The translations under genes and the position numbers were made by a program. From Patescibacteria group bacterium (GTDB lineage: Bacteria; Patescibacteriota; Dojkabacteria; J137): a stretch of DNA of 64,000 nt. Below are positions 3,445 to 47,726 of the stretch, piece by piece. The notes under the pieces are model-generated. The model made no database searches and was not told the origin of the DNA. It saw only the letters and a list, made by a program, of their open reading frames with translations. The DNA lies in contig CAUJCN010000002.1 of NCBI GenBank assembly GCA_963169855.1, forward strand, positions 197,508 through 261,507. The letters are read 5' to 3'. Within the stretch, counting starts at the first letter, position 1; each line of letters begins with the position of its first letter.

Positions 3445-4035
3445 TTAGTTAAAAATTGATAAATCTATTTTATCAAAATCTATTGGTGGATTTTCATCGA
3501 AAACTTTTTTGATTAGAACTTTATACTCGTCTTCGGTCCATAAAACTAAATTCATTTCTGATATAAACTCTTCAATTTGGTCTTCTGCTTTATTACGTTG
3601 CGATTCGTCTTCAAGCTCAATTTCAATTTCGTAGTGATCTTGTAGCAAACCCTGATTTTTTAAAGAAATTGTAAAATTCTTATATTTGTAATCCTCTCGA
3701 TAGTAAAATCTTGGACAACCATTTACAACTCCAAACATCCTTAGGAAATCGAAAATTGAGTCAATATTTTTAAGATCAAAGGGAAGGGATAGCTCCTGCC
3801 TTGCTGTATCTTTCAAGTCTCCCAATTTTGCTTTAAGTCTTGCTGTAGTTGAATTTTCAGAAAGATTCTGGGAAATTGAGATATTTATTTGATTCTTGTT
3901 TTGATCATTCTTGAAAGTGGTAAAGATTCCCAATTGATTATACTTTCCTAAGAGTTGTGAATTCTTCGAGAGGAATTTCTGAAATTCTTGAAACTGTTCC
4001 TCTAATAGTGGACCTCTTTTTTCGATTTCGATCAT
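3445..4035 (-). CDS. CYTH-like (triphosphate tunnel metalloenzyme) domain protein, paralog 1
   Basis: N-terminal acidic motif MIEIEKRG (ExExK-like) and C-terminal CPRFYYREDYKYKNFTISLK...DHYEIEIELED (R..Y...lD...ExExE pattern of CYTH); paralogous to 10346..10975 and 13422..14030. Confidence 0.45.
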   Translation of the reverse strand: MIEIEKRGPLLEEQFQEFQKFLSKNSQLLGKYNQLGIFTTFKNDQNKNQINISISQNLSENSTTARLKAKLGDLKDTARQELSLPFDLKNIDSIFDFLRMFGVVNGCPRFYYREDYKYKNFTISLKNQGLLQDHYEIEIELEDESQRNKAEDQIEEFISEMNLVLWTEDEYKVLIKKVFDENPPIDFDKIDLSIFN

Positions 4036-9790: not shown

Positions 9791-10336
9791 TTATTTATAT
9801 GACTCTAGTAAATCATTAACGAGATCCATAATTTGGATTTCGTCTTCGACATTGATATCATATTCTACCCCTGTATTAGTAAAATCTTCAATAAAGTTTT
9901 TAACTTCCTCGGGTCTCCAATCATCAATTCTTTTAATCCTAATAGCTTTAACATTTCGAAGGATCAAGTGTTTGATATATGGATTTACTGAATCCGAAAA
10001 CATCGGTTTATATAGAAATAGAATTGGCTTATCGTGAAGTATTGCATAAGCGATTTCTATACTAGCACTAACTCCGATATATCCTATCTGATCAACGAAT
10101 TTGTTATGAACAACGTGAATAGGATTTCTCTTGATTGCTTTAAAGAAATCTATCTCTACTGAATGGAAGTTCTTTTCTTCTGTAGGAATAAAAGTGACAT
10201 CTATTCCGTTATGCTGACCGATAATTCCATCATTAAAAGGAAATTCAACAATAACTCCAGCAGACTCTAGTTTCTTTTTAAGTTCGAAAAGTCCATTTTC
10301 TAGCTTTGAAAATTTACCACCAAGTTGAGTTTTCAT
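9791..10336 (-). CDS. nucleoside 2-deoxyribosyltransferase-like (NDT/Rossmannoid) protein
   Basis: IGYIGVSASIEIAYAILHDKPILFL resembles the D-GTxFE(L/I)GyA...KP(V/I) core of NDT-like proteins; weak. Confidence 0.35.
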   Translation of the reverse strand: MKTQLGGKFSKLENGLFELKKKLESAGVIVEFPFNDGIIGQHNGIDVTFIPTEEKNFHSVEIDFFKAIKRNPIHVVHNKFVDQIGYIGVSASIEIAYAILHDKPILFLYKPMFSDSVNPYIKHLILRNVKAIRIKRIDDWRPEEVKNFIEDFTNTGVEYDINVEDEIQIMDLVNDLLESYK

Positions 10337-10345
10337 ATGAGAATA

Positions 10346-10975
10346 TTAAATATTACAAGAAATAAATTCTTTCCATTGACTAAACCACTGATCAACTGAT
10401 AATTTTGTAAAATCTACTTGAGTTTCTTCAATCTGATTAATTTTGTTGATGAATGAAATTGTATCTTCGGAATTGAGAACTTTTAAATTCTGAGCTAAGA
10501 AGAAATCTTCGATATCTTTTTCAGCTATAGTAGTTGAAGATTTCTCATCTACCGTCTTTTCAACTTCGACAAGGATTTCATCCATATGATGATACGAATC
10601 AATAGTTATGATGAGACCATTTAATTCATACTTTTTTCTAGTTACATACATTGATACAAAGTAGTTGAATCCTAGAGAAGTAAGCATGTTTACAATTTCT
10701 GAAATCTCATCATTCTGAAAATGAATTTCGTTCTCTTTTCTACCAGAACTATCATGCCAATTTCCTTTCTTCACTGTGAATAGGGACTCATTTTTAGTTG
10801 TTCTAATTTTAATATCAAGATCATTGTTAGGATCGGAAGTAAAATCAGAGTTTTGAACTTTTACTAAAGTATATCTTTTAACTTCACTTAATTTCTTACT
10901 ATTCGAATTTAAGTATATAAGAAGCTCATCGTTTTTGGCGTTTGATATCAAAGCACGTTTTTCAACTTCAATCAT
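10346..10975 (-). CDS. CYTH-like domain protein, paralog 2 (divergent)
   Basis: N-terminus MIEVEKRA and C-terminal TRKKYELNGLIITIDSYHHMDEILVEVE matching the R..Y...l.lD....G.f.EvE CYTH motif. Confidence 0.4.
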   Translation of the reverse strand: MIEVEKRALISNAKNDELLIYLNSNSKKLSEVKRYTLVKVQNSDFTSDPNNDLDIKIRTTKNESLFTVKKGNWHDSSGRKENEIHFQNDEISEIVNMLTSLGFNYFVSMYVTRKKYELNGLIITIDSYHHMDEILVEVEKTVDEKSSTTIAEKDIEDFFLAQNLKVLNSEDTISFINKINQIEETQVDFTKLSVDQWFSQWKEFISCNI

Positions 10976-12432: not shown

Positions 12433-12720
12433 AATATTATTAGTAATAATTAAGTAGCTTATGAATTAATGCCTTTTACAACTAAATTCTGTGCGAGTAC
12501 TTTTTTATTAAATGTCCTTTATTATGATTGCGAAAACTCGCCAATTCTCTTTCCCAGCAATACGATAGTGCCAATATTGATTGACATTTTTTGAAGACTA
12601 ATGTAGAATTATGATTGCAAGAAAAACACAGAGAACACTCTGATGTTAATCTTGGTACGAAGCTGATTGGTTTAGACCTCGAAATCAAAAACCAACCAGC
12701 TTTTTTTACATTGACTCTCC

Positions 12721-12778
12721 ATACACACATGTGTATAATTATACAGTTATGTGTAATACCATGTGTATAAATATTACT
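12721..12778. promoter_or_regulatory. candidate operator: 10-bp palindrome ACACATGTGT plus three direct ATGTGTA(T/A)TA repeats in divergent promoter region
   Basis: Read directly: atacacacatgtgtataattatacagttatgtgtaataccatgtgtataaatatt immediately upstream of 12780 (+) gene. Confidence 0.3.
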
Positions 12779-12779
12779 A

Positions 12780-13439
12780 TTGCAATTGATTTTATGTCAA
12801 GCAATTTTGTCAATTATATTAATCAAATACATTAATTTCATGAAAGTCTTCTTTAGTTGTTCAACAAACGATATCTTAAAACATAGAGAAAATTACGAAA
12901 CAATAGTAAAGACTATCTCAGAAGAAGGTCATGAATTAACAAGAGACTGGCTAAAACGTTCTGTTGACTTAGCTGCAAAGAATGAGCCTGAGTTAAATAG
13001 GGGTAATCACTACTCTTCAGTAATGTCGGCAATAATTGATGCAGACGTCGTTATTTTCGACAGTACTGTAAAAAGTATGAGCATAGGACATCAACTAACT
13101 TTTGCTCTAGACAAATCAAAACCTGCACTACTACTTGCAAATATATCTGATAAAGCGATGGAAGATCTGTTTATCAGCGGTTCGAAATCCTCTTTCCTTA
13201 CAATGAAAAACTACGCAAATGCAAAGGATCTTAAAGCATTAGTCAAAGACTTTTTAACAAAGAGTTCCTCAAAATCAAAAGTCCGATTTCAAATAGTATT
13301 GGACAAGGAACAGAATGACTACCTTGAATGGGCAGCATTTAAATACAAGAAGAACAAAAGTGATATTGTAAAAGTATCTTTGAATAATTCCGCCGAACAA
13401 GACGAAGATTACAACCAAAGACTATCCAATCAACCCTAG
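12780..13439 (+). CDS. DNPH1/Rcl-like (2'-deoxynucleoside 5'-phosphate N-hydrolase-like) NDT-superfamily protein, catalytic-Glu position is Gln
   Basis: MKVFFSCSTND...AIIDADVVIFDSTVKSMSIGHQLTFALDKSKPALLLA parallels DNPH1 YFCGSIRGG...ADVVVAEVTQPSLGVGYELGRA...KRILCLF; Q replaces E in the G(Y/H)(E/Q)LG element; the first Met of the ORF is probably not the true start (MKVFF internal start plausible). Confidence 0.5.
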   Translation: MQLILCQAILSIILIKYINFMKVFFSCSTNDILKHRENYETIVKTISEEGHELTRDWLKRSVDLAAKNEPELNRGNHYSSVMSAIIDADVVIFDSTVKSMSIGHQLTFALDKSKPALLLANISDKAMEDLFISGSKSSFLTMKNYANAKDLKALVKDFLTKSSSKSKVRFQIVLDKEQNDYLEWAAFKYKKNKSDIVKVSLNNSAEQDEDYNQRLSNQP

Positions 13440-14030
13440 ATCAATTTCACTCATTGGAATTGGAGGATTTTCCTTGAATACATTAAGCATGATTTCTTTA
13501 TATTCACTCTCGGTATAAGCCTGTAGATTATGTTGTGATAAAAAGTCTTCAATTAATTTTTCTGCATCATCTTCTTGGTCTTTATCTTCCAGTTCAATAT
13601 CGATTTCAAAATGATCTGGTGCTAAACCGCCTTCTTTTAAAGTAATGTTCAGTCCATTGTACGAGTAATCTTCTCTATGATAAAAACGAGGACACCCTTC
13701 AGTTATTTGAAATATTGAGAGGAATTTAAATACTTCATCAAGATCTGATTTAGTAAAATCCATACTACTTTCAATACGTTTTCCAGATTCCATTCTTCCA
13801 GTTTTACTTTTCAGTTTGCATTTAATAGTATGATTAATTTTATCTTTTGAAATTGATACATTTATGGAAGCTTTTGTATTCTCTATATCACCTAAGAATG
13901 GATTGTTGAACTCGATAAAAATATTTAATTGATTACAATCATTTACCAAAGTTGCATTCTTCTGCAAAAAGTTCCTTAGTTTTAGCTTGTTTTGAGGATC
14001 TAACCTGCCTCTTTTTTCAATTTCGATCAT
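13422..14030 (-). CDS. CYTH-like domain protein, paralog 3
   Basis: MIEIEKRG N-terminus; EGCPRFYHREDYSYNGLNITLKEGGLAPDHFEIDIELED closely parallels paralog 1. Confidence 0.45.
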   Translation of the reverse strand: MIEIEKRGRLDPQNKLKLRNFLQKNATLVNDCNQLNIFIEFNNPFLGDIENTKASINVSISKDKINHTIKCKLKSKTGRMESGKRIESSMDFTKSDLDEVFKFLSIFQITEGCPRFYHREDYSYNGLNITLKEGGLAPDHFEIDIELEDKDQEDDAEKLIEDFLSQHNLQAYTESEYKEIMLNVFKENPPIPMSEIDLGLIG

Positions 14031-15004: not shown

Positions 15005-15046
15005 TAGCTCGTGTTATACACGGGAAGTATATCATTAATGGACTAA

Positions 15047-47524: not shown

Positions 47525-47726
47525 CTATCTTAAGATAACCCCATGCATCTCAGTAATAGTTGTGTAATAGCATTACCCTAACAGTAAAACATTTATCGAA
47601 AGTGATGTCAAGGGCCTTGGAAGCACTCAATCTGCAAAGCAGGATCTCGATCGAGAAATGAAAACACTCATTCTGAGTAAATTTGTTGATTGATTTTCTT
47701 GTAACTTTTTAGTGGAATTTGGAGTA

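Follow-up and report, generated by a model that had tools for sequence, protein, structure and literature searches.

In a stretch of 64,000 nucleotides (nt) from a Patescibacteria group bacterium (Dojkabacteria; assembly GCA_963169855.1, contig CAUJCN010000002.1, positions 197,508 to 261,507), hereafter the window, one gene very probably encodes an enzyme-like domain that has lost its catalytic residues, fused to a ribbon-helix-helix (RHH) DNA-binding domain. A preliminary description, made from the letters of the window and a list of its open reading frames (ORFs), had presented this gene as a relative of DNPH1/Rcl in which the catalytic Glu is replaced by Gln. The RHH domain, which was not mentioned there, recasts the odd enzyme as a predicted transcription factor. 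All positions are those of the window, except where another locus is named.

The ORF previously assigned to the gene, 12780..13439 on the plus strand, is present and is the maximal frame, opening with TTG, but its start was placed 60 nt too far upstream. In all 18 close homologues the N-terminus is MKVFF, which is encoded here at an internal ATG, and a 600-nt gene is predicted by the gene callers used on other assemblies. For these two reasons, the true start is the ATG at 12840, not the TTG at 12780, giving a protein of 199 amino acids (aa).

Single-sequence searches with this protein gave no usable match to any Pfam, NCBIfam, or PADLOC model, and its best matches among PDB sequences, although all DNPH1/Rcl, were weak (E~0.5). 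A profile of 18 homologues (A1), however, matches rat Rcl and human DNPH1 over residues 3-142 with E values of 1.4e-7 to 2e-5. When the AlphaFold2 model of the protein (predicted local distance difference test, pLDDT, 87) was compared to the PDB with Foldseek, the top 50 matches were all DNPH1/Rcl chains (best E 2e-6), with template modelling (TM) scores normalised to the target of 0.65-0.78 and identities of ~14-22 %. The DNPH1 layout that had been proposed from short motifs, with the flavodoxin-like fold of the DNPH1/NDT type, is therefore supported by both profile and structure. The Pfam family PF05014 (Nuc_deoxyrib_tr) is weakly matched by nine of the 18 homologues (best E 4.8e-4); the window protein itself has no match at E≤1, and the Pfam gathering threshold is not reached.

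DNPH1 is 2′-deoxynucleoside 5′-phosphate N-hydrolase 1, a 5-hydroxymethyl-dUMP hydrolase. In this enzyme, the catalytic triad is formed by Y24, D80, and E104, the phosphate is held by S98 together with S128′ of the partner subunit, and H56 contacts the base (PMC10603095). In the sequence and profile alignments, the triad positions are taken by F4, V61, and Q85 in the window protein, and GHQLT falls under GYELG in both the single-sequence and the profile alignment. The claim that a Gln stands at the position of the nucleophilic Glu is thus upheld, and the replacement of the catalytic Glu was correctly reported, but incompletely, as the other two triad residues are replaced as well. Q85 is found in every one of the 18 close homologues, the most distant of which have 39 % identity. 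Its conservation is only partial in a wider set of 159 relatives (the proteins of 170-230 aa among 167 retrieved, mostly representatives of the profile search described below), where position 85 is Gln in 118, Glu in ten, and mostly hydrophobic in the remainder. Asp is found at position 61 in none of these relatives, and none carries the full triad, including those with Glu85.

Since the triad is absent in all 159 relatives, the family as a whole is predicted not to be a DNPH1-type hydrolase, yet the pocket appears to be preserved. The conserved residues that align to pocket positions are S8, R35-D36-W37, Y58, S79, and G83. Among these, S79 (present in 117 of 159) is the equivalent of the phosphate-binding S98, and R35/D36 align to E55/H56 of DNPH1, so that R35, D36, and W37 occupy the site of base contact. 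The AMIRG helix of DNPH1, which reaches the partner's site, corresponds to LFISG. Like this helix, S79, G83, R35, D36, and W37 do not vary in the family, or hardly so. Human DNPH1 with the E104Q change binds 5-hydroxymethyl-2′-deoxyuridine 5′-monophosphate (hmdUMP) but does not cleave it (PMC10603095). With this precedent, and with the other triad residues also replaced, the earlier idea of a substrate-binding rather than catalytic variant is the best reading of the domain.

The C-terminal region, residues ~146-190, consists of a strand (RFQIVLD), a helix (EQNDYLEWAAFKY), a turn (KKNKS), and a second helix (DIVKVSLNN), with helices predicted at 156-169 and 173-187 in the AlphaFold model. The strand-helix-helix pattern is present: polar and hydrophobic residues alternate in the ribbon, and the second helix is N-capped. 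When a profile of the C-terminal region of 48 diverse members (A2) was compared to solved structures, matches were found to TTHA0139 (2.5e-5), ORF56 (0.004), CopG-family proteins (0.011 and 0.035), 56B (0.02), and CopG (0.025), with weaker matches to ParG, AvtR, and VapB26. PF01402 (RHH_1) is matched by 12 of the 48 members (best 1e-5), and others match RHH_5 (6.5e-6) and RHH_3. At the ribbon positions expected to face DNA, R149 is present in 135 of 159 relatives and Asn or Gln at 151 in 134 of 159; these conserved residues fit a putative DNA specificity that is common to the family.

An RHH domain in the encoded protein would explain the palindrome and repeats upstream of the gene. The perfect 10-bp palindrome of the preliminary description, ACACATGTGT, is indeed present and lies within a candidate operator, TACACA-CA-TGTGTA, in the spacer of a sigma-70-type promoter (Table 1). 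The three direct repeats had been written as ATGTGTA(T/A)TA; ATGTGTA(T/A) does occur three times, at 12729, 12749, and 12761, but the final letters '(T/A)TA' fit the middle copy only. These are three of only six copies in the window, and TACACANNTGTGTA has a single occurrence in the whole 64 kb. The half-sites that follow the operator are nearly base-for-base alike in loci L004 and L027, whereas the flanking intergenic DNA is not; from the -35 hexamer up to and including the third repeat, the three closest genomes hardly differ, though they diverge on either side of this block. The palindrome is also found upstream of homologues with 40-70 % protein identity in different Patescibacteria. Across 17 loci, all nine occurrences of the core ACACANNTGTGT fall in the 2,734 nt that precede the homologous genes, and the other 183,085 nt contain none. 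This conserved promoter block matches the expectation for an autoregulated RHH repressor, the binding of which is predicted from the sequence.

It is proposed, with moderate confidence, that the protein is a ligand-responsive autorepressor; DNA binding, ligand binding, repression, the identity of the ligand, and the oligomeric state are all predictions of this model. A DNPH1-like dimer with a non-catalytic pocket would sense a small ligand. This is probably a nucleoside phosphate or another nucleotide-related metabolite, and it would be bound without cleavage because the catalytic triad has been lost. The RHH domain would pair with the RHH domain of the second subunit, and the ribbons, inserted in the major groove, would read TGTGTA/TACACA half-sites; the conserved upstream repeats lend this arrangement indirect support. 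Because the gene's own -35/-10 promoter is spanned by these half-sites, the protein would act as a repressor of its own gene, and the repression may extend to adjacent or divergent nucleotide-metabolism genes in relatives. The presence of the ligand in the pseudo-active site would then alter DNA affinity and switch repression.

Several observations weigh against this proposal. The equivalent of S128′, D109, is variable in the family (Asp, Ser, Asn, or Pro) and R30 of DNPH1 aligns to N10, and for this reason the 5′-phosphate site is not clearly kept and the class of ligand is uncertain. The equivalence of D80 to V61 comes from a sequence-profile alignment beside a gap. In the monomer model the RHH strand appears as coil, as is expected for an RHH domain without its partner, but this gives the ribbon no positive support. 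The TGTGT motif is absent from the upstream regions of loci L011, L021, L028, and L014. A second 5′ element, TGTCAAG, is no less widespread than the palindrome; the protein could in fact bind there, or the element could serve a different factor. In 11 of the 17 loci it stands on the plus strand, 10-50 nt ahead of the start codon, and in several loci directly after TATAAT; three copies lie elsewhere.

It is unlikely that the N-terminal domain is a mere dimerisation or oligomerisation scaffold for an RHH repressor, free of ligand and regulated by protein level. DNPH1 is an obligate dimer in which a helical extension touches the partner subunit (PMC10603095), and the partner-contacting helix is conserved here (LFISG), while the phosphate-site S128′ and R30 are not kept, all of which would suit a scaffold. 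However, the highest conservation is at the positions of the DNPH1 active site (S8, R35-D36-W37, S79, and G83-H84-Q85), and Gln is kept at position 85 in 118 of 159 relatives rather than drifting; a pure scaffold would need no preserved pocket. That the protein is still an enzyme is very unlikely. It would be an N-glycosidase or transferase working through other catalytic residues, with its RHH domain as a tether to DNA or a nucleic-acid partner, in the manner of the nucleoside 2-deoxyribosyltransferase (NDT) effectors of type II retrons. The absence of the triad as a set from all 159 relatives speaks against this, even though Glu is found at position 85 in ten of them and the retron effectors have a like domain order, with an N-terminal NDT-like domain and a C-terminal DNA-binding domain (PMC7736814). 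Nor was a reverse transcriptase or retron non-coding RNA found nearby; no PADLOC defence model was matched, the only hit among the defence-effector models being to CARF and insignificant (E 0.024). The locus, beside nusA and a tRNA gene, shows conserved chromosomal synteny and is not an island, and the gene-specific upstream palindrome fits an autoregulator.

The protein could also serve as antitoxin or regulator in a module of the toxin-antitoxin or defence type, with the effector provided by the neighbouring CYTH, NUDIX, or Mom-like gene, but this is extremely unlikely. In antitoxins, where RHH domains are frequent, the RHH domain is N-terminal and the remainder is a short toxin-binding tail. 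The weak VapB and ParG-type matches and the tight linkage to enzymes acting on nucleotides or DNA would agree with such a module; however, the partner gene is inconstant, being Mom-like, NUDIX, or neither, and a PADLOC search of eight genes gave only P-loop noise.

The proposed autorepressor belongs to a widespread family. A full-library profile search returned 1,602 clusters (at 50 % identity) with E≤0.001, 743 of them with E≤1e-10, and nearly all are 185-205 aa in length and matched over their full length. The nearest named relative (70 % identity) is from a Candidatus Saccharibacteria metagenome-assembled genome (MAG), locus L004 is likewise 70 % identical, and further members come from Woesebacteria and 'Patescibacteria group' MAGs. 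Database labels for these proteins are 'hypothetical protein' only, and literature searches found no account of a DNPH1/NDT-RHH fusion or of TTHA0139. The fusion is rated as a new domain combination, and the family as a large, new, and unnamed group of one-component regulators. In locus L011 (4376-5504) there are two tandem family members (190 and 184 aa) without the GHQ motif, which reads GIAVA in the first, and with no TGTGT palindrome upstream.

Neighbouring genes were counted in the 17 loci. The most frequent is a gene for a Mom-like GNAT protein of ~320 aa, which adjoins the regulator gene, or is separated from it only by a CYTH gene, in nine loci; the CYTH gene lies between the two in five, and in L007 the Mom-like gene is co-directional with a 4-nt overlap. 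A NUDIX gene is found 4-5 nt downstream on the same strand in four loci, a divergent Ppx/GppA gene in four, and a Ham1/ITPase gene in three. Other neighbours include genes for thymidylate-synthase-like, radical-SAM, and adenylate/guanylate kinase-like proteins, two QueC proteins, and GTP cyclohydrolase II. Enzymes acting on nucleotides are a consistent feature of this neighbourhood, which favours the proposed model. No remote homology was found among the divergent upstream genes of different loci (268, 254, and 270 aa). In L003 (548-7896), from a Woesebacteria MAG, the regulator gene is within a cluster with two NUDIX genes, two QueC genes, Ham1, and an AAA_17 kinase gene, as well as a thymidylate-synthase-like gene (PF00303, E 1.3e-5) and a radical-SAM/SPASM enzyme gene. 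This cluster looks like a modified-nucleotide pathway.

The Mom-like assignment is based on PF25680, which is matched by 11 of 11 homologues (best 2.2e-9), and on Foldseek, in which the top match is Mom of phage Mu (8bv8, E 1.2e-9). Mu Mom carbamoylmethylates adenine in DNA using glycyl-tRNA (PMC13219725). The Mom-like protein of the window has a helical N-terminal extension of ~95 aa, and its invariant H138/Y139, R193, and S206 have offsets that are compatible, by spacing only, with H58/Y59, R111, and S124 of Mu Mom. It could carry out a tRNA-dependent base modification in Patescibacteria. The Mom-like gene has a TATACT -10 box, and in both the window and L004 a GTGTA half-site comes directly after it. 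The window site, CGTGTATAACACG at 15018-15030 on the minus strand, has inverted GTGT/ACAC arms directly after this -10-like box, and its equivalent in L004 is CGTGTGTA. As a weak lead, this may be a second operator, through which the convergent operon would also be controlled; the site is too short for significance alone.

A broader circuit can be imagined, although it is distinctly improbable, in which the dead DNPH1 pocket senses a non-canonical nucleotide from DNA turnover or salvage and thereby derepresses the Mom-like, NUDIX, CYTH, and Ham1 genes, as a system specific to Patescibacteria. Candidate ligands would be a hydroxymethyl-pyrimidine nucleotide or an N6-carbamoylmethyl-adenine ('momylated') nucleotide. 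If this were true, hypermodification of chromosomal DNA would be coupled to nucleotide-pool sanitation in organisms without de novo nucleotide synthesis.

The convergent CYTH gene, a conserved neighbour in a Saccharibacteria-like clade, overlaps the 3′ end of the regulator gene by 18 nt. This overlap, which had been described as unusual, is confirmed by the positions of the two stop codons, and it is taken to be real because the C-terminal tails of both proteins agree with those of their homologues. Its length varies among relatives: L004 shares the 18 nt of the window, L013 and L028 have 4 nt, and in L027 the two genes are instead 2 nt apart. A conserved antisense device is rejected on this ground. 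A single terminator-like site was found inside the overlap partner, and it does not exceed chance expectation. Since its length is not conserved, the best explanation of the overlap is the close packing of genes in a compact genome, not a regulatory device.

The window has three CYTH-domain paralogues that lie within 11 kb of sequence (3445-4035, 10346-10975, and 13422-14030), all on the minus strand. The first and third have similar termini (MIEIEKRG... and a C-terminal ...ENPPI... segment), and the second shares its operon with three further genes (268, 181, and 280 aa) and one that is guanylate-kinase-like. In the 181-aa ORF at 9791..10336 on the minus strand, the segment SASIEIAYAILHDKPILFLY is similar to the G-x-E...KP-hydrophobic motif seen in NDT-type enzymes. 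This ORF was considered as a second NDT-like paralogue, but the idea found no support, with an hhalign probability of 3 % and no PDB match.

Just upstream of the regulator promoter there is a stand-alone transcription unit, 12581-12712 on the plus strand, with a promoter of its own (TTGACA-17-TAGAAT). The RNA of ~95 nt, at 12614-12712, has a predicted fold of -30.1 kcal/mol (z = -5.4); at its end there is a hairpin (12660-12702) with a T-run after it. In L004 and L027 the promoter of this unit is conserved, and the stem of the terminator persists despite base changes on both arms. No Rfam family was matched by this RNA, which is a candidate new small RNA. TGTCAAG is depleted in the window, with two copies compared to ten expected; the copy that is not upstream of the regulator gene, at 47606-47612, is in a 200-nt gap between two minus-strand genes.

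Table 1. Positions of the regulator gene, its domains and 5′ elements, and the neighbouring genes in the window.
Feature	Position	Strand	Details
Regulator gene	12840..13439	+	199 aa, two domains; stop TAG 13437-13439
DNPH1/Rcl-like domain (nucleoside 2-deoxyribosyltransferase superfamily), residues 1-143	12840..13268	+	Without catalytic triad; profile, Foldseek, PF05014
Codon CAA for Gln85, at the position of the nucleophile Glu104	13092..13094	+	Alignments to DNPH1
RHH (CopG/Arc/MetJ-type) DNA-binding domain, residues ~146-190	13275..13409	+	Predicted from profile, Pfam, and model helices
Sigma-70-type promoter TTGACT-17-TATAAT	12711..12739	+	Consensus at 11 of 12 positions; also conserved in L004 and L027
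Candidate operator TACACA-CA-TGTGTA	12722..12735	.	In promoter spacer; overlaps -10 hexamer; no other match in the window
Perfect 10-bp palindrome ACACATGTGT	12725-12734		Within candidate operator
Further half-sites	12740..12768	+	TATACA 12740-12745, ATGTGTAA 12749-12756, ATGTGTAT 12761-12768
Second conserved 5′ element	12795..12814	+	TGTCAAG 12795-12801, TGTCAAT 12808-12814
3′-end overlap of regulator and CYTH genes, 18 nt	13422..13439	.	Regulator stop 13437-13439; CYTH stop 13422-13424 (minus)
CYTH-domain gene, 202 aa	13422..14030	-	PF01928 below threshold (E 0.007); neighbour cluster C2 in 5 loci
Mom-family GNAT gene, 322 aa	14036..15004	-	PF25680, Foldseek; possible regulon member

The Patescibacteria (Candidate Phyla Radiation, CPR) are ultra-small bacteria that have tiny genomes with few recognisable transcription factors and rely on salvaged nucleotides. 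A widespread family of regulators with a predicted operator would be among the few testable regulatory circuits in these bacteria. The family would also be a natural case of the E-to-Q 'substrate trap' of DNPH1 put to use as a sensor. In addition, cellular, non-phage Mom-like enzymes are flagged here as conserved partners, and it may be asked whether the bacteria use hypermodification on DNA or nucleotides of their own.

Compared to DNPH1/Rcl, the nearest known system in fold, the fold and the order of motifs are shared over ~140 residues, as are the equivalent of S98 (S79), the G-x-x loop, and the dimer helix, and the natural Gln85 is the counterpart of the engineered E104Q substrate trap (PMC10603095). 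The window protein differs in having F4/V61/Q85 for the triad and R35/D36 for E55/H56, in the loss of S128′, and in the additional C-terminal RHH domain. The NDT effectors of type II retrons, nearest in architecture, are alike in that an NDT-superfamily domain is followed by a DNA-binding domain (PMC7736814). The window locus differs from them in lacking a reverse transcriptase, msr/msd RNA, and the catalytic Glu, and in its context, which is chromosomal and housekeeping in Patescibacteria; membership in this group was rejected based on the lack of a reverse transcriptase among the neighbouring ORFs, of an Rfam retron RNA, and of a PADLOC model match.

A parallel in logic is seen in NrtR, which combines an inactive Nudix domain with a winged helix-turn-helix, and in PurR of B. 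subtilis, which combines an inactive phosphoribosyltransferase with the same type of DNA-binding domain. As proposed for the window protein, a catalysis-dead nucleotide-enzyme fold is the effector-binding domain of a repressor of nucleotide genes. There is no sequence relationship, and both the sensor fold, here DNPH1/NDT, and the DNA-binding fold, here a C-terminal RHH, are different. The ligand-controlled RHH repressors NikR, MetJ, CopG, and Arc recognise short inverted or direct repeats overlapping the promoter. In NikR, the RHH domain is N-terminal and its DNA affinity is controlled by a fused ACT-like metal-binding sensor, whereas in the window protein the RHH domain is C-terminal and the putative sensor is DNPH1-like.

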